From assembly GCA_046539285.1 (NCBI GenBank), contig JBKHHH010000001.1, positions 1-44,690 of the forward strand: a DNA stretch of 44,690 bases. The letters are read 5' to 3'. Shown one piece after another: positions 8,214-44,690 of this stretch. A program made the position numbers and the translations under genes. The notes beneath the pieces were generated by a model. The model made no database searches. It saw only the letters and a program-made list of their open reading frames with translations, and was not told the DNA's origin. The DNA comes from Candidatus Aenigmatarchaeota archaeon (GTDB lineage Archaea > Aenigmatarchaeota > Aenigmatarchaeia > PWEA01). Position 1 is the first letter of the stretch; each line of letters begins with the position of its first letter.

Positions 8214-8301
8214 TGGTGGGCTCGACGGGATTTGAACCCGCGACTCCAAGGTTTCTCCGTAGTTAAGAGCCTTGTGCTCTGCCAGACTGAGCTACGAGCC
8301 C
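8214..8301 (-). tRNA. tRNA-Lys(CTT) with an 11-nt anticodon-loop intron (about 8253-8263), CCA encoded
   Basis: Minus strand reads GGGCTCG-TA-GCTCAGTCTGGCAGAGC-A-CAAGG-CTCTTA[11]A-CCTTG-GAGTC-GCGGG-TTCAAAT-CCCGT-CGAGCCC-A-CCA. Confidence 0.9.
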
Positions 8302-16056: not shown

Positions 16057-16219
16057 TGGGCTCGACGGGATTTGAACCCGCGACTCCTGGGTTTCTTTCC
16101 TCATCGACATATTGTCTTGGTTCTTTCAACCTTAAATATGAAACAGAGTTTCAATTTTGCGAAACCTGTTTCGCAAATAGTTAAAAGCCCAGTGCTCTGC
16201 CAGACTGAGCTACGAGCCC
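16057..16219 (-). tRNA. tRNA-Lys(TTT) with an 89-nt anticodon-loop intron (about 16093-16181), no encoded CCA
   Basis: Minus strand reads GGGCTCG-TA-GCTCAGTCTGGCAGAGC-A-CTGGG-CTTTTA[89]A-CCCAG-GAGTC-GCGGG-TTCAAAT-CCCGT-CGAGCCC-A. Apart from the anticodon arm, the exons are identical to tRNA-Lys(CTT). Confidence 0.9.
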
Positions 16220-16232
16220 ATCTGTATGATAA

Positions 16233-16308
16233 TGGCGCCGTGACCGGGATTTGAACCCGGGTCAGAGCCTCGACAGGGCTCTATGCTAAGCCACTACACC
16301 ATCACGGC
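16233..16308 (-). tRNA. tRNA-Asp(GTC), intron-less, CCA encoded
   Basis: Minus strand reads GCCGTGA-TG-GTGTAGTGGCTTAGCATA-GAGCC-CTGTCGA-GGCTC-TGAC-CCGGG-TTCAAAT-CCCGG-TCACGGC-G-CCA. Confidence 0.95.
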
Positions 16309-16334: not shown

Positions 16335-16455
16335 GGGGCTGGCAACGTCCTGGATTTCACAGCTTTTCGCTGATACTGTCCAATTCGCTGGAGGACTTTT
16401 CTTCCGTGTTCGGAATGGGTACGGGAGTTGCCCCTCCGCTTTGGTCGCCAGCCTT
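16335..16455 (-). rRNA. rrf: 5S ribosomal RNA (ends approximate within a few nt)
   Basis: The minus strand contains CCCGTACCCATTCCGAACACGGAAG (5S loop B/helix III signature). A terminal helix forms between GGCTGGCGAC and GTTGCCAGCC. Length is about 120 nt. Confidence 0.9.
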
Positions 16456-17882: not shown

Positions 17883-17936
17883 TTGTTACACCTATTAGTA
17901 ATTAGTTTCAGACTAATAAATAAATATTTGCCGGGC

Positions 17937-18131
17937 CTATTTCTTGAACTGCGAAGCCTTGGGCAACAGGTCGGAATGTGTCAGGAACAGACTGCGGCAA
18001 CAGTATCTCTCCAGGCCTAGGTCGTCCAGCACTTCTTTGGCGTCCTCGCCGTCTTCTGTTCTTTCCTTAAATTCTTCCCAGAGGTGACCGACCGGCTTTC
18101 CACAGGATATACATCTGACAGGTATGATCAT
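17937..18131 (-). CDS. rpoN: DNA-directed RNA polymerase subunit N
   Basis: MIIPVRCISCGKPVGHLWEEF...LGLERYCCRSLFLTH is the Rpb10/RpoN signature. The start is the ATG at 18131, 4 nt after the S9 stop; the track's longer ORF overlaps rps9. Confidence 0.9.
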   Translation of the reverse strand: MIIPVRCISCGKPVGHLWEEFKERTEDGEDAKEVLDDLGLERYCCRSLFLTHSDLLPKASQFKK

Positions 18132-18135
18132 CTTA

Positions 18136-19303: not shown

Positions 19304-19463
19304 TGGTGCGGGGGGCCGGATTCGAACCGACGAAGGCACTAAGCCACAGGATTTCTTATCATCATCCGCACCGGTAAGGTTCGGACCTCATCACTTAAGT
19401 ATCTAAACTTAAGTCCTGCACCTTTAGTCGTATGATTAACTTTGACCGCTTGGTTACCCCCGC
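19304..19463 (-). tRNA. tRNA-Leu(TAA) with two introns (about 18 nt in the D-loop, about 19423-19440; 55 nt at 37/38, 19353-19407), CCA encoded
   Basis: Minus strand reads GCGGGGG-TA-ACC-AAGCGGTCAAA[18]GGT-G-CAGGA-CTTAAG[55]A-TCCTG-TGGCTTAGTGCCTTC-GTCGG-TTCGAAT-CCGGC-CCCCCGC-A-CCA. The first nucleotide overlaps the rpoD TAG stop. Confidence 0.85.
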
Positions 19464-20246: not shown

Positions 20247-20630
20247 TCAAACTCTCTTGCCTCGTTTTCCACCGGGCTTTCTTGTTGAGTCATGTGGGAT
20301 CGGCGTCACGTCTTCGATCTTGCCGATTCTCATCCCGCTTCGGGCGATGGCCCGGATGGCTGGCTGTGCGCCCTGACCAGGGTTCTTGGAATTATGTCCG
20401 CCTGGTGCCCGGACACGGATATTGACCTTGTTGAAGCCTTTGTCCTTGGCCTCCTGGGCCGCCTTCTTTGCCGCCTGCATGGCGGTGAAAGATGTGCCCT
20501 TGTCCCTGTCTTTATCGGTGACCATCCCACCTGTGTGTCGGCTTATGGTTTCAGCACCCGTTATGTCTGTAATATGAATTATAGTGTTGTTCGAGGACGA
20601 ATAGATGTGGGCGATTCCTGTCTTGCTCAT
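20247..20630 (-). CDS. rps11: 30S ribosomal protein S11 (uS11)
   Basis: [21 protein letters not shown]...[27 protein letters not shown] is the uS11 signature. Confidence 0.95.
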
Positions 20631-21046
20631 CAGTTCTCCACCTCTGTTACCTTTTTATTTACCTCTATTTCGTTTTCCATCTCCTTGGGGACAAGAAAGG
20701 ACGGGGTCTCGATTCTTCTCCCGCCAATTCTCACGTGTCCGTGAACTATAAACTGTCGTGCTTGTTTTGCAGTCTGAACACCACTTAGCTTGGAAACGAC
20801 GGTCTGAAGCCTCCTCTCGAGGATATCTCTCAGCTCGATCTTAAGAACGTTGTCGAGGGATTCCTCGTCTATAAGGCCTAGATTCTTGCATTTCTCGAGT
20901 AGTTTTCCTTTTTCTTCTTCGTCTTCCTCCGCTTCGTCCTCTTCCGCTTGGTCGCCTTCCGCTTCCCTCTCGTCGTCGATGCGCTTTTCGTCCCACGGAA
21001 TCAGTGGTTTTTCGTATTTTTTACGCTGTTTTCTCGGATCTCCCAT
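20630..21046 (-). CDS. rps4: 30S ribosomal protein S4 (uS4), short form with acidic N-terminal insert
   Basis: Has [14 protein letters not shown] and the S4 domain (ERRLQTVV...[20 protein letters not shown]). Residues about 26-46 are poly-acidic. Confidence 0.9.
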
Positions 21047-21513
21047 TATTCTTCACCGCCGCTCTCTTTCTTTACTCTTTTTCTTGATACACCAACCGAA
21101 GATGTACCACGGAAACTTGATTTCGTTTTCTGTCCTCGGACAGGGAGCCCCTGTCTGTGTCTCATACCTCGGTAGGAACCGAGCTTCTTCATCCTGTCGA
21201 TATCCTGTCTGTGCTGGATGTCGAGATCGGTAGTTACCAGCAGCTTGTCTTCACCGTCCTCCGGTCCCTTACGTCTGTTAAGTATTTCGGCCGGAAGATC
21301 GTTGTTTTCGACTACGTTCTTTATCTTATCCAGGTCATCTTCGGAGAGGTCATTGGCTACCGTATCCCCGTCGATACCGGTTTTCTTCAGTATAGCTTTG
21401 ACTGTCGTGAAGCCTATACCCTTGACTTCACAGAGCCCGTTCTTTATCTTCTTGTCTCCGGTAATGTCAGTACCGAAGATCCTGATGATGCTGCTCTTTG
21501 TTTTTGCCATCAT
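21046..21513 (-). CDS. rps13: 30S ribosomal protein S13 (uS13)
   Basis: IRIFGTDITGDKKI...GIGFTTVKAIL...YRGMRHRQGLPVRGQKTK is the uS13 signature. Confidence 0.95.
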   Translation of the reverse strand: MMAKTKSSIIRIFGTDITGDKKIKNGLCEVKGIGFTTVKAILKKTGIDGDTVANDLSEDDLDKIKNVVENNDLPAEILNRRKGPEDGEDKLLVTTDLDIQHRQDIDRMKKLGSYRGMRHRQGLPVRGQKTKSSFRGTSSVGVSRKRVKKESGGEE

Positions 21514-21527
21514 AACACCTTTTGTAT

Positions 21528-21769
21528 TGGCGCCGGGAGAGGGACTTCCAGACCTTTAGATTGCCTAAAGACCCTTTGAACCCCCGTGTGCTTCGCCGCT
21601 GGACATGGTCGTGAGACCAAGCCGTCCTATGACGCACACCGGATCTCTTGTCACGTTTTCATCTACCGGCCGCGCTCTCGCGCTTCAGTATCATTAGATC
21701 CGGTTATTGAAAGGCAGAGCCCTTCAAATCTCAAGTCCGGCGCGTTGGACCTGACTTCGCTATCCCGGC
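21528..21769 (-). tRNA. tRNA-Ser(TGA) with three introns (85 nt at 37/38, 21645-21729; about 37 nt in the variable arm, 21596-21632; 30 nt in the T-loop, 21545-21574), CCA encoded
   Basis: Minus strand reads GCCGGGA-TA-GCG-AAGTCAGGTCCAA-CGC-G-CCGGA-CTTGAG[85]A-TCCGG-TGTGCG[37]CGAAGCACAC-GGGGG-TTCAAA[30]T-CCCTC-TCCCGGC-G-CCA. The exons are near-identical to tRNA-Ser(GGA) at 37082-37219. Confidence 0.85.
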
Positions 21770-21774
21770 TTTAA

Positions 21775-21951
21775 TCAGAAGCTTTCCGCTTCCTCCAACA
21801 ACATATTAGGTATGTCGTCTTCAACTGCAAACTTGAGCCGGCAGTTGTGACAAACTATTTTATTTTCATCCTTTTTAAGTTTTACATCGCCTTTACACTT
21901 CGGACAGGCCAGTACTTCCATCAGTCTTTCCGTGTTCTCAGGGCGGGACAT
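21775..21951 (-). CDS. Trm112-like zinc-ribbon protein (methyltransferase activator family)
   Basis: MSRPENTERLMEVLACPKCKGDVKL...IVCHNCRLKFAVEDDIPNMLLEEA matches the Trm112/DUF343 pattern. The track's TTG start at 22011 overlaps cbf5. Confidence 0.7.
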   Translation of the reverse strand: MSRPENTERLMEVLACPKCKGDVKLKKDENKIVCHNCRLKFAVEDDIPNMLLEEAESF

Positions 21952-22001
21952 CACAATGTATTTCAATACTAACCTTTTTAAAGCTTTTTGAATTCGGGAG
22001 G

Positions 22002-22961
22002 CTATTTCCAACCCTTCGGATAGGTACCTCGATCCATAATCACGTTTTTCAGTGAAACGGCCTTAGCGTCTTTTCTATCCCTCATTTCCTGGCCGGTCAT
22101 TTCCGCTACACCAATCGCGATCAGTTCTCCTTTCAGGGAGAGAATAGCTATCCGGTCTTCCTCTTCGATGTTTTTTTCGACATGGCAGAGCCCGCCGACT
22201 CCTAGAGGTGCTCCCTGGCAGAGGGACTCCACGGCCGTGTCCTTGACTGTAACTACCTTACAGGCTTCGGCGGTCATTTCCACGGGAAGAATGTCTTTTC
22301 GGATGTCGTCCTTTTTTCCTTCCTTGTAGAATACATAGTCATCCTTGAGGTCGTAGAGCGAAATAGCATCCTCAACGGAAAACGGTCCGATCCTTGTCCT
22401 TCTCAGTTCCTTCATATGGGCGCCTACACCGAGACTTTCGCCCAGGTCGTGGGCCAGTTTTCGTATATAGGTTCCGGCCTCGCAGCTCACTCTGATCAGC
22501 AACTTCTGCCCTTTCCTTTCCAGCAGTTTCAGTTCCTTGACCATTCTTTTTCTTTCCTGGCGCTTGACCGCGGATTTCTTCGGCGGAACCTGTTTTATTT
22601 CGCCACGGAACTCCTCCAGCCTCTCTTCTAGTTTTTCCTTCTCCACCTCTTCGTGAAGATAGATCACGGTTATGTATTCCTTGTCCAGACCCTTTAGGAC
22701 GGGCATTGCCTTGGTCGACTTGTTAAGTGCGATCAGAAGCAGGCCGCTGGTTTTGGGATCCAGAGTTCCGCTGTGACCGGCCTTGTCTATGTTCAGTATT
22801 CTTTTTACCCAGGCCGTTACCTGGTGAGAAGTAGGTCCCGATGGTTTGTCGAGGAGAACAAGACCGCGTTCGATCATCTCCTCCACGGATCTAGCTCCTG
22901 GATATTTACCGTATTGAGGATGAGAAATGTGCTCTGATTTGATAAAGAACTGTCTCTTCAT
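22002..22961 (-). CDS. cbf5: tRNA/rRNA pseudouridine synthase Cbf5 (TruB family + PUA domain)
   Basis: LLDKPSGPTSHQVTAWVKRIL...AGHSGTLDPKTSGLL is the TruB catalytic motif, with a C-terminal PUA-like region. The ATG at 22961 forms an ATGA overlap with the upstream gene. Confidence 0.9.
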   Translation of the reverse strand: MKRQFFIKSEHISHPQYGKYPGARSVEEMIERGLVLLDKPSGPTSHQVTAWVKRILNIDKAGHSGTLDPKTSGLLLIALNKSTKAMPVLKGLDKEYITVIYLHEEVEKEKLEERLEEFRGEIKQVPPKKSAVKRQERKRMVKELKLLERKGQKLLIRVSCEAGTYIRKLAHDLGESLGVGAHMKELRRTRIGPFSVEDAISLYDLKDDYVFYKEGKKDDIRKDILPVEMTAEACKVVTVKDTAVESLCQGAPLGVGGLCHVEKNIEEEDRIAILSLKGELIAIGVAEMTGQEMRDRKDAKAVSLKNVIMDRGTYPKGWK

Positions 22962-32004: not shown

Positions 32005-32306
32005 CCTTTTATCTTTATTTTGCTTTCGGGGAACCCGAGTTTTACCAGGAGGTCCTCCATCTTGCGAAGATGGTTGCCCTGGAGTTCGATCTTGCCGTCC
32101 TTGTACGTTCCGCCGCAGGCCAGATTTTTCTTCAACTTCTTGGCCATTTCTTCCGGGTCCATGCCCTGGGAAACGTTGTCGACGACCGTGATCACCTTGC
32201 CGTACCTCCTTCGGGAGGTATAGACCTCGATCATCTCTTCTTCCTTGGCTATCGTGTCACAAACACAGAGCTCCTCCGGTAGTCCACAATCGGGACAGGT
32301 TGCGAT
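32001..32306 (-). CDS. Translation initiation factor aIF1 (SUI1 family); start codon non-canonical or unresolved
   Basis: SUI1 core is GKVITVVDNV...LACGGTYKDGKIELQGNH. Upstream of the first ATG (32234), the frame stays open and encodes the conserved zinc knuckle IATCPDCGLPEELCVCDTIAKEEE. There is no ATG/GTG/TTG in that stretch; the candidate start is ATC at 32304-32306. Confidence 0.75.
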   Translation of the reverse strand: MATCPDCGLPEELCVCDTIAKEEEMIEVYTSRRRYGKVITVVDNVSQGMDPEEMAKKLKKNLACGGTYKDGKIELQGNHLRKMEDLLVKLGFPESKIKIKG

Positions 32307-32312
32307 TAAAGA

Positions 32313-32507
32313 TCACCTTTCATTTAAAATTGTATTTATTCTGGCAATTGTTTTTTTCATTGCCTTTATCTTGCCTGGGTTTTCCGGCACGCCACCGATC
32401 TCTATCTGAGCTCTCTCCTTGGCTATCTCCAGTTTCAGTTCTTCCTTCTTCTCTTCCAGCCCGCTTTTATCCATCTCTCTCAGTTCGTCTATTCTGGCGA
32501 TGGCCAT
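32313..32507 (-). CDS. rpl29: 50S ribosomal protein L29 (uL29)
   Basis: 64 aa; IDELREMDKSGLEEKKEELKLEI...KIKAMKKTIARINTIL is the uL29 pattern. Confidence 0.9.
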   Translation of the reverse strand: MAIARIDELREMDKSGLEEKKEELKLEIAKERAQIEIGGVPENPGKIKAMKKTIARINTILNER

Positions 32508-32509
32508 TT

Positions 32510-37081: not shown

Positions 37082-37219
37082 TGGCGCTGGGGGAGGGATT
37101 TGAACCCCCGCGTGCTTCGCCGCTGGACGTGGTCGGAGACCACGTCTTTCTATGACGCACACCAGCTATTTGGTCAAGTCTCCAAGCTGGCGCGTTGGAC
37201 CAGACTTCGCTACCCCAGC
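37082..37219 (-). tRNA. tRNA-Ser(GGA) with two introns (12 nt in the anticodon loop, about 37168-37179; about 36 nt in the variable arm, about 37120-37155), CCA encoded
   Basis: Minus strand reads GCTGGGG-TA-GCG-AAGTCTGGTCCAA-CGC-G-CCAGC-TTGGAG[12]A-GCTGG-TGTGCG[36]CGAAGCACGC-GGGGG-TTCAAAT-CCCTC-CCCCAGC-G-CCA. Confidence 0.85.
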
Positions 37220-39510: not shown

Positions 39511-39855
39511 CAAACCACCTATTATTATTTAATTGTCCGCGGTTTATAAAAGTCAACCTCGAAACATGCTTTGTTTGTCCCGGGAAGATACGATGAACCT
39601 TTTTATGGAAAAGAAGTTAATTCTGAGACTTATTATTCAAGGGGAAAGATAGAGAAGATAGTTATCTTGATTTATCAGCCTATAAAATCGGTTAGAGATT
39701 TTCTGTCTTTTTATCAAGCTTAATTCCAACCAATAATCGATAAGGTAATTTTATGAGAGTTTAACTGGATTTAAGGGCTTTATTTTTGTTATCGACGGAT
39801 AAAATTTTAGATAGTCACTGCTAACCTGTTTAGAATGTTTTGAAAGGAAAATATC

Positions 39856-43856: not shown

Positions 43857-43955
43857 AAGATGCTCCACTGTGTAGGATTGCCGCTAAAATTTATATGCAT
43901 TTCCCACAGCCGATTTTAATAAATTAGAAACAACTATATAGAGTAGGAGGATAGG

Positions 43956-44690
43956 ATGGATATAAAGATAGTCGGTGGTGGTGCAGCCGGTCTGATCTCG
44001 GCCCTCTACCTCAGGAAACTGGACAAGGCTGAGATAACTGTTTACGAGAAACAGACCCGCGACAGTTACGAGTCAACACCTTGCGGCGAAGGAATCTCCT
44101 TCGACAAGATAAGCGAACTCAGGGAAGAAACCGGTTTCGATTCCTTTCCCCATGTCTCAAAGGAGGTCAGAGGCATCGAGCTGATCTGTCCGAACATGAC
44201 CTCGAGTTACGTCCACAAGGAGGGCGCGGTTCTGAACAGAGACGGGTGGCAGAGGACGATGATCGAGTTCCTTGAAGAGAGAGGAGTCCAGTTCCGGTTC
44301 GATCAAGAGATAGAAAGCAGCGACGATTTAGATTACGACATCCTGGTCGGCGCCGAGGGGCCGGTTTCGAAGATAAGACAGGAGATCGGAGGAAGTATAG
44401 ACGTCTTCTCGTCCGTCCAGTATAAGATGAAGCTGGACAGAAGTCCGGATTATCTGGAGTTCTACGCCGACAAAATGTTTGACGGGGGCTACGGGTGGGT
44501 CTTTCCCAAGGAGAAAATGGCCAACGTTGGCTGCGAGGGAAGTTTCAAGAGATTGGATAGATTTCTCGAAAAGTACGATATTGACGGCGAAATAATTGAA
44601 AAGCAGGCCTATCCCATCGGCGTCAGCGGTACTAAACAACAAGAAGGCAGCATATACATTATAGGCGGGGCCGGTGGCCTGACCAACGCC
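43956..44690 (+). CDS. Geranylgeranyl reductase family FAD-dependent oxidoreductase (partial, runs off window end)
   Basis: GGAGG SD lies 6 nt before the ATG. Has the FAD motif IVGGGAAGL, then GAEGPVSKIR and GGYGWVFPK, typical of the GGR family. The frame is open to the window end. Confidence 0.8.
   Translation, partial: MDIKIVGGGAAGLISALYLRKLDKAEITVYEKQTRDSYESTPCGEGISFDKISELREETGFDSFPHVSKEVRGIELICPNMTSSYVHKEGAVLNRDGWQRTMIEFLEERGVQFRFDQEIESSDDLDYDILVGAEGPVSKIRQEIGGSIDVFSSVQYKMKLDRSPDYLEFYADKMFDGGYGWVFPKEKMANVGCEGSFKRLDRFLEKYDIDGEIIEKQAYPIGVSGTKQQEGSIYIIGGAGGLTNA

Follow-up and report, generated by a model that had tools for sequence, protein, structure and literature searches.

The 44,690-nucleotide (nt) stretch of DNA analyzed here, which we call the window, comes from contig JBKHHH010000001.1 of a Candidatus Aenigmatarchaeota archaeon and represents an archaeal gene cluster for ribosomal proteins, RNA polymerase and elongation factors (EF). 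Its minus strand carries, at positions 21528-21769, a 242-nt tRNA-Ser(UGA) gene that comprises 90 nt of exon sequence, encoded CCA included, and 152 nt of intron sequence. A Trm112-like gene (21775-22011), which comes after Cbf5, has its stop codon 5 nt before the tRNA gene (gap 21770-21774), and the tRNA gene ends 14 nt ahead of the start codon of the gene for ribosomal protein S13 (gap 21514-21527). S13 (21046-21513), whose start codon is preceded by a GGTG Shine-Dalgarno-like motif, is followed by S4, S11 and RpoD. Because this close packing leaves the tRNA gene no space for a promoter of its own outside coding sequence, it is probably transcribed together with the S13 ribosomal-protein operon and processed from a polycistronic Cbf5-Trm112-tRNA-S13 transcript.

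Four exons and three introns alternate along the gene, all on the minus strand. Exon 1 (21730-21769; 40 nt, GCCGGGATAGCGAAGTCAGGTCCAACGCGCCGGACTTGAG) is near-identical across the 13 orthologues described below and holds the acceptor 5′ strand, the D-arm, the 5′ strand of the anticodon stem and the anticodon loop to position 37, with the anticodon TGA at 21731-21733. Intron 1 (21645-21729; 85 nt) lies at the canonical position 37/38. Exon 2 (21629-21644; 16 nt, ATCCGGTGTGCGTCAT) supplies A38, the 3′ strand of the anticodon stem, and the 5′ half and loop of the variable arm. Intron 2 (21592-21628; 37 nt) interrupts the variable arm after the last loop nucleotide and before the 3′ strand of the arm stem. 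That strand is found in exon 3 (21575-21591; 17 nt, GCACACGGGGGTTCAAA), together with the T-stem 5′ strand and T-loop positions 54-59. Intron 3 (21545-21574; 30 nt) sits in the T-loop at 59/60, and exon 4 (21528-21544; 17 nt, TCCCTCTCCCGGCGCCA) completes the gene with T60, the 3′ strands of the T-stem and acceptor stem, a discriminator G and CCA.

Removal of the three introns restores a canonical cloverleaf, and ARAGORN calls the joined 90 nt as tRNA-Ser(tga). The spliced product has a 7-base-pair (bp) acceptor stem, 5-bp anticodon and T stems, the T-loop TTCAAAT, and a variable region of 16 nt that includes a stem of 4-5 bp; with its long variable arm, G73 and the serine anticodon UGA, it has the features of a class II tRNA-Ser. 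A sequence-only reading of the window had proposed that four minus-strand blocks join into such a tRNA once introns of 85, 37 and 30 nt are removed from the anticodon loop, the variable arm and position 59/60, and the ARAGORN call, the splice motifs and the orthologues from 13 distinct genomes all bear this out. The intron hairpins that it described are likewise present (TTGAAGGGC/GCCTTTCAA and GCGC/GCGC in intron 1, CTTTAG/CTAAAG in intron 3), as is a 62-amino-acid open reading frame (ORF) on the plus strand at 21586-21774. The unspliced stretch drew no call from ARAGORN and no match to the Rfam tRNA model even at E<=10. At a permissive threshold, Rfam returned chance-level matches across 21450-21850 (PhotoRC-I, E=1.2; sR33, E=7.3, the latter outside the intron), so no Rfam family accounts for the introns. 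The further claim that standard gene finders miss this gene thus holds for the two that demonstrate it, ARAGORN and the Rfam tRNA model; the archaeal mode of tRNAscan-SE 2.0 is built for iterative removal of up to three non-canonical introns (PMC8450103).

We scanned for bulge-helix-bulge (BHB) splice motifs by testing every pair of start and end positions for two 3-nt bulges with a 4-bp helix between them, placing cleavage after the second bulge nucleotide. Motifs could be drawn at all three exon-intron junction pairs, and the sequence-only reading, which had named the absence of any BHB-like structure as grounds for giving it up, survives on this point. At intron 1, two AG|A bulges flank the central helix CTTG/CAAG; the anticodon stem serves as the outer helix (at least 5 bp), and the inner helix is 2 bp long. 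Intron 3 shows a strict hBHBh′ motif, in which the T-stem forms the 5-bp outer helix, the central helix TTCA/TGGA lies between bulges AA|G and AG|T, and the inner hairpin extends over 9-10 bp. The motif of intron 2 has the central helix CGTC/GGCG, the outer helix TGTG/CACA (4-5 bp) and the bulges AT|A and AA|G, and is relaxed: an extra AGC opposite the 5′ bulge breaks the inner helix. Relaxed motifs of this kind have been described for non-canonical intron positions (PMC4090602, PMC4033280). BHB geometry sets the borders of intron 2 at ...GTCAT|AGGAC...GGCGAA|GCACAC, which upholds its predicted length of 37 nt and moves both borders 4 nt downstream of the TGTGCG|...|CGAAGC implied earlier. The same cleavage rule reproduced five 37/38 introns of the window's other tRNAs.

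The three-intron tRNA-Ser(UGA) gene lies between Trm112 and S13 in all five nearest genome relatives (L001-L005). A scan of metagenomes with an exon-1 pattern added the orthologues L065, L070 and L071, and S13 homologues in a protein database led to L075, L076/77, L078 and L079 and to the Logan runs L073 and L074. An exact-protein look-up with the 155-amino-acid S13 of the window gave no match; the 154-amino-acid form led to the same locus in the assemblies of two independent Logan runs, L073 (SRR19844287) and L074 (SRR19844286), where, judged by eye, the tRNA-Ser gene and its flanks look identical to the window. S13 proteins across the orthologue genomes are 54-73% identical. Introns occupy the same three positions in eleven distinct genes, with lengths of 42-85 nt (intron 1), 16-37 nt (intron 2) and 22-55 nt (intron 3) and largely diverged sequences. 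The exons are nearly invariant, and the changes they show are compensatory: pair 7:66 goes from G-C to A-U in the window, and pair 3:70 from C-G to U-A in L071. Intact tRNA-Ser genes also lie directly upstream of S13 in Methanobacteriota, Thermococci, Methanofastidiosia, Nitrososphaerota and another Aenigmatarchaeota metagenome-assembled genome (MAG), which marks this slot as an expected home for a tRNA-Ser.

We aligned the spliced products with intact tRNA-Ser genes of other archaea. In this alignment 99.7% of cloverleaf pair cells are kept, and 17 of the 24 cloverleaf pairs have changed on both sides. None of 500 shuffles reached these values, and slid controls paired at 33-57%. The splice motifs are conserved as well, with 96.8% of BHB helix cells paired over nine orthologues. 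Overall, these comparisons and the splice motifs lead us to regard the locus as very probably a functional tRNA-Ser(UGA) gene with three protein-spliced BHB introns, belonging to an Aenigmatarchaeota-related DPANN archaeon.

Three other explanations were weighed against a functional three-intron gene. The gene might contain just two introns, at 37/38 and 59/60, with the 37-nt insert retained as part of a 53-nt variable arm; the insert does fold as a hairpin that lengthens the variable-arm stem, and its BHB motif, with the broken inner helix, is the most relaxed of the three. Yet all eleven insert-bearing orthologues retain the motif's two 3-nt bulges and 4-bp central helix, with both-sided changes at all four helix pairs (CGTC/GGCG, TCGC/GCGG, CCGT/GCGG, CCGC/GTGG and GCGA/TCGT, to which L078 adds CAGT/ACTG), while the insert itself varies across its 16-37 nt range and shows little sequence conservation. 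Moreover, two of the closer relatives, L075 (1274-1500; S13 73% identical to that of the window) and L076 (80-314; 66%), have introns 1 and 3 and lack the variable-arm intron. Their uninterrupted 16-nt arms (TGTGCATTACGCACAC in L075, TGTGCATTCCGCACAC in L076) agree in length and stem with the arm predicted for the window gene after splicing, and represent a natural intronless allele. A homologous insert with identical flanks is also found in the tRNA-Ser(GGA) gene of the window. We consider a retained insert very unlikely; L075 and L076 point to a recent gain or loss of a BHB intron inside the clade.

The gene could also be a decaying tRNA-Ser pseudogene that has accumulated insertions while a functional copy resides elsewhere, as might be suspected from the silence of ARAGORN and Rfam on the gene and from an analysis that spans 44.7 kb of the genome. 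Decay is hard to square with exons held under strong purifying selection, whose changes compensate one another despite the divergence of S13, with supposed insertions that are all located in BHB motifs, or with a locus that is the conserved tRNA-Ser slot upstream of S13; nor did we find another tRNA-Ser(UGA) within the window. This explanation strikes us as scarcely credible. Finally, three free deletions might carve a tRNA-like sequence from many 240-nt stretches by chance, given the large search space of triple deletions and ARAGORN's leniency toward odd D-loops. We therefore ran the same procedure, removing BHB-flanked pieces and submitting the remainder to ARAGORN, on both strands of 19 intergenic gaps. 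It recovered the known tRNAs and the target gene, whereas 79,614 trial removals over the 3,646 nt of 14 other gaps in the window gave no tRNA call, so the tRNA-Ser(UGA) assembly is more than chance. The same exon blocks recur in thirteen orthologues, with covariation far above the shuffled and slid controls, and the comparative data effectively refute a chance assembly, whose probability we regard as negligible.

If the gene is indeed a functional three-intron gene, every junction pair of its precursor would fold as two 3-nt bulges with a 4-bp helix between them. Cutting by the tRNA-splicing endonuclease EndA and joining by an RtcB-type ligase are established for the archaeal tRNA-splicing enzyme family. 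Here, EndA would cleave every bulge behind its second nucleotide, and the ligase would link the four exons as a class II tRNA of 90 nt and probably also circularize the introns.

Several points weigh against this account. Splicing itself is inferred, not observed, and with 44.7 kb at hand a second, intact tRNA-Ser(UGA) gene may exist elsewhere in the genome. A Pfam scan of 30 ORFs, about half of those in the window, found no gene for EndA, a ligase or another splicing protein. The predicted structure of the precursor raises a further difficulty. The unconstrained minimum-energy fold of the 242-nt precursor (-99.8 kcal/mol, z = -3.8) contains the acceptor stem and the BHB motifs of introns 2 and 3, but it lacks the anticodon stem and the BHB motif of intron 1. 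In their place, an antisense element within intron 1, ACCGGATCT (21696-21704, minus strand), pairs with the 3′ splice junction. Among nine orthologous precursors that we folded, six, the window's included, have this helix in their minimum-energy structure, and in all nine precursors the conformer with the cloverleaf and BHB motifs is 3-15 kcal/mol worse than the minimum-energy fold. Two conformers of the precursor would compete, one with a ACCGGAUCU:AGAUCCGGU helix and the other with the anticodon stem and BHB motif, and since the minimum-energy fold lacks the BHB motif of intron 1, a splice-competent fold would need refolding or the help of a protein.

The antisense element belongs to a conserved module. 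ACCGGATCT is complementary to AGATCCGGT, which runs from the final two nucleotides of the intron through A38 and the 3′ strand of the anticodon stem (39-43) to U44. One nucleotide past it lies a D′-box-like ATGA (21691-21694, minus strand; consensus WTGA), and farther into the intron a C′-box-like GATGA (21659-21663, minus strand; consensus RATGA). The 27 nt between these two boxes form a hairpin whose ends pair as TAC/GTA, which would give the geometry of a kink-turn (K-turn). We compared introns by an anchored motif table, as MAFFT misaligned long and short forms, and found the module in all 13 orthologues: (A)CCGGATCT, one nucleotide, WTGA, a loop of 6-8 nt or an insertion of 26-38 nt, and RATGA. 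The spacing from antisense to WTGA is invariant in 13 of 13, and 0-26 nt separate the module from the 5′ splice site. Of the four long forms, three carry an end-paired hairpin (TAC/GTA, ACC/GGT) as their insertion, and L076 does not. The WUGA...RAUGA sequence is compatible with a D′/C′ K-loop or K-turn.

The pairing of this module with the tRNA resembles that of a box C/D guide RNA. (A)CCGGATCT-N-WTGA pairs with AGATCCGG(T), placing the fifth nucleotide upstream of WTGA opposite U39. In box C/D guides, the methylation target pairs with the fifth nucleotide upstream of the D or D′ box (the N+5 rule; PMC6009581), and the module shows the corresponding arrangement, an antisense of at least 8 nt directly upstream of a D/D′-type box with its target at the fifth nucleotide. 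The antisense pairing includes one covarying change, in L005, where GGATTT faces AAATCC; there is just one because all tRNA-Ser(UGA) orthologues found share the anticodon stem CCGGA/TCCGG. We looked for terminal C (RUGAUGA) and D (CUGA) boxes flanking the module in every orthologue and for a second guide around it, and found neither. L7Ae, Nop5 and fibrillarin are absent from the 30 window ORFs scanned with Pfam. The module is also absent from the canonical introns of nanohaloarchaeal tRNA-Ser genes (L009, L013, L023, L011 and L046), which pair with the anticodon loop in the usual manner, and is not evident in the 89-nt tRNA-Lys(UUU) intron of the window.

The same architecture recurs in the 37/38 intron of the window's tRNA-Leu(UAA) gene: CTTAAG, two nucleotides, WTGA, a hairpin and RAU-GA, followed by the central-helix strand TAAG. 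The closing stem of this hairpin covaries (L001-3, L005, L070), the element is K-turn-like, and its N+5 nucleotide lies opposite the wobble nucleotide U34. The box C/D RNA in the euryarchaeal pre-tRNA-Trp intron has these same two positions, 34 and 39, as its target sites, and in Pyrococcus a free-standing C/D small RNA is predicted to target position 34 of tRNA-Leu(UAA) (PMC7994747). The antisense elements of both modules resemble partial copies of upstream exon sequence and may descend from a duplication.

We tentatively suggest, with more doubt than conviction, that the modules in intron 1 and in the tRNA-Leu(UAA) intron are half box C/D guides with a single K-turn, or else an L7Ae-dependent switch that gates splicing of intron 1. 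In the former case, a module composed of an antisense of 8-9 nt, 1-2 nt, WUGA, a loop or hairpin, and RAUGA would act in cis by pairing with the anticodon arm of the tRNA that contains it, and would guide 2′-O-methylation of U39 (Ser) and U34 (Leu) ahead of splicing. In the latter, the module would change conformation upon L7Ae binding and thereby control removal of intron 1.

The window is rich in tRNA introns beyond tRNA-Ser(UGA): it holds nine introns across six tRNA genes in 44.7 kb, and five of the six genes are interrupted. All six lie on the minus strand. The tRNA-Lys(CUU) gene (8214-8301) has one 11-nt intron, tRNA-Lys(UUU) (16057-16219) has its one 89-nt intron, and tRNA-Asp (16236-16308) has none. 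The tRNA-Ser(GGA) gene (37082-37219) has two introns, one of 12 nt at 37/38 (37168-37179) and one of 36 nt in the variable arm (37116-37151), and none in the T-loop. Its variable-arm intron matches that of tRNA-Ser(UGA) at 31 of 37 positions (84%), with identical flanks, which suggests sharing or transfer of the intron between serine isoacceptors.

The tRNA-Leu(UAA) gene (19304-19463), directly after rpoD, was overlooked by both ARAGORN and Rfam; its joined exons are called as tRNA-Leu(taa). It has an 18-nt D-loop intron (19424-19441; helix GGTC/GACT) and a 55-nt intron at 37/38 (19353-19407; helix CTTA/TAAG), both conserved in L001, L002, L003, L005 and L070. Because ARAGORN tolerates almost any D-loop, a deletion scan of the tRNA-Leu D-loop is uninformative, and we placed this intron by hand via the GGTC/GACT helix, with support from the orthologues.

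A 5S rRNA gene (16337-16452, minus strand) lies immediately upstream of tRNA-Asp and tRNA-Lys(UUU). No 16S or 23S gene was found in the window, and the 5S gene seems to be unlinked from the large rRNAs. Four non-coding gaps of 250-460 nt each (39514-39855, 43869-44327, 32192-32509 and 17883-18135) yielded neither an Rfam match at gathering score nor, once BHB introns were removed, a tRNA; small RNAs that lack annotation, or short genes called wrongly, could lie in them.

As to the organism, S13 of the window is 54-58% identical to that of the nearest species-representative relatives, MAGs labelled Candidatus Aenigmatarchaeota or Nanobdellati, and EF-1alpha is 76-81% identical to proteins named Aenigmatarchaeota; closer relatives occur in Logan assemblies. 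In another Aenigmatarchaeota MAG, the tRNA gene upstream of S13 (L082:970-1110) encodes tRNA-Ser(GGA) and is interrupted twice, by an intron in the D-loop and one of 12 nt in the anticodon loop, so both the isoacceptor and the intron positions at this slot vary between lineages. Ribosomal protein S4 (20630-21046, minus strand) has a long run of acidic residues near its N-terminus, and neighboring proteins are acidic too. We take the nearest MAGs to come from brine or soda-lake-type samples and the host to be presumably mesophilic-halophilic; the acidic run in S4, its acidic neighbors and these sample types are consistent with a salt-adapted organism.

Gene finders blind to multiple introns would score tRNA-Ser(UGA) and tRNA-Leu(UAA) as missing here and in at least a dozen related MAGs. 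Such misses skew estimates of tRNA complement and completeness for DPANN genomes, a gap flagged by Kaneta et al. (2018). That study (PMC5829648) reports raised tRNA gene disruption in several DPANN lineages and reads incomplete tRNA sets as a sign of disrupted genes that have escaped detection and call for curation by hand, as is the case here. The disrupted tRNAs described from DPANN archaea, with the epsilon2 EndA of ARMAN and an alpha4 EndA with an L3 loop (Fujishima 2011; Kaneta 2018), come from the same superphylum as the gene described here. The 2018 survey (PMC5829648) includes no Aenigmatarchaeota genomes and reports neither a three-intron tRNA-Ser nor its conservation across a clade, and we found no description of Aenigmatarchaeota tRNA introns in the literature searched.

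Archaeal tRNAs with up to three BHB introns are themselves well documented, chiefly from Thermoproteales (PMC4033280, PMC8450103). The sequence-only reading placed triple-intron tRNAs with variable-arm and T-loop introns in only a few archaeal lineages; the three-intron class, with three as its maximum, was already established, and what is new is mainly the lineage, together with the conserved guide-RNA-like element in intron 1. As in Pyrobaculum, Thermofilum and Caldivirga (Sugahara et al. 2007/2008, via PMC4033280 and PMC8450103), up to three BHB introns per gene occupy 37/38 and non-canonical sites, and relaxed motifs (hBH/HBh′) occur at the latter. Nine introns in six genes is a load comparable to that of the most intron-rich Thermoproteales. 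Related introns in different tRNA genes, termed 'intron transposition' in that order, have their counterpart in the variable-arm introns of tRNA-Ser(UGA) and tRNA-Ser(GGA). Thermoproteales, however, are Crenarchaeota with an (alpha-beta)2 EndA that bears the crenarchaeal loop, while the gene here belongs to DPANN/Aenigmatarchaeota. The gain or loss of the variable-arm intron among relatives and its occurrence in two serine isoacceptors would offer a second, independent system in which to study the spread of BHB introns. The three-intron nuclear tRNAs of Cyanidioschyzon merolae (PMC3728597, PMC9602550) are a more distant parallel, as this is a eukaryotic red alga with introns at other positions and no evolutionary link.

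For the module in intron 1, the closest known system is sR50, the euryarchaeal pre-tRNA-Trp intron, which as a box C/D RNA guides formation of Cm34 and Um39 (Clouet d'Orval 2001, via PMC7994747). Both are 37/38 introns with an antisense beside a D′-type box whose fifth nucleotide lies opposite 39 (tRNA-Ser here) or 34 (tRNA-Leu here), and in both the folds of the precursor alternate between a guide conformer and a BHB conformer. The module of intron 1 differs from sR50 in having one putative K-turn or K-loop (WTGA...RATGA), no recognizable C/D boxes and no second guide; its hosts are tRNA-Ser(UGA) and tRNA-Leu(UAA) rather than tRNA-Trp. If these intron modules do prove to be guides or switches, a broad-specificity EndA is predicted for the lineage, and intron-encoded tRNA modification would become testable beyond tRNA-Trp. 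The tRNA-Trp intron-guide paradigm would then take in further tRNAs, the DPANN archaea and a pared-down architecture that dispenses with C and D boxes.

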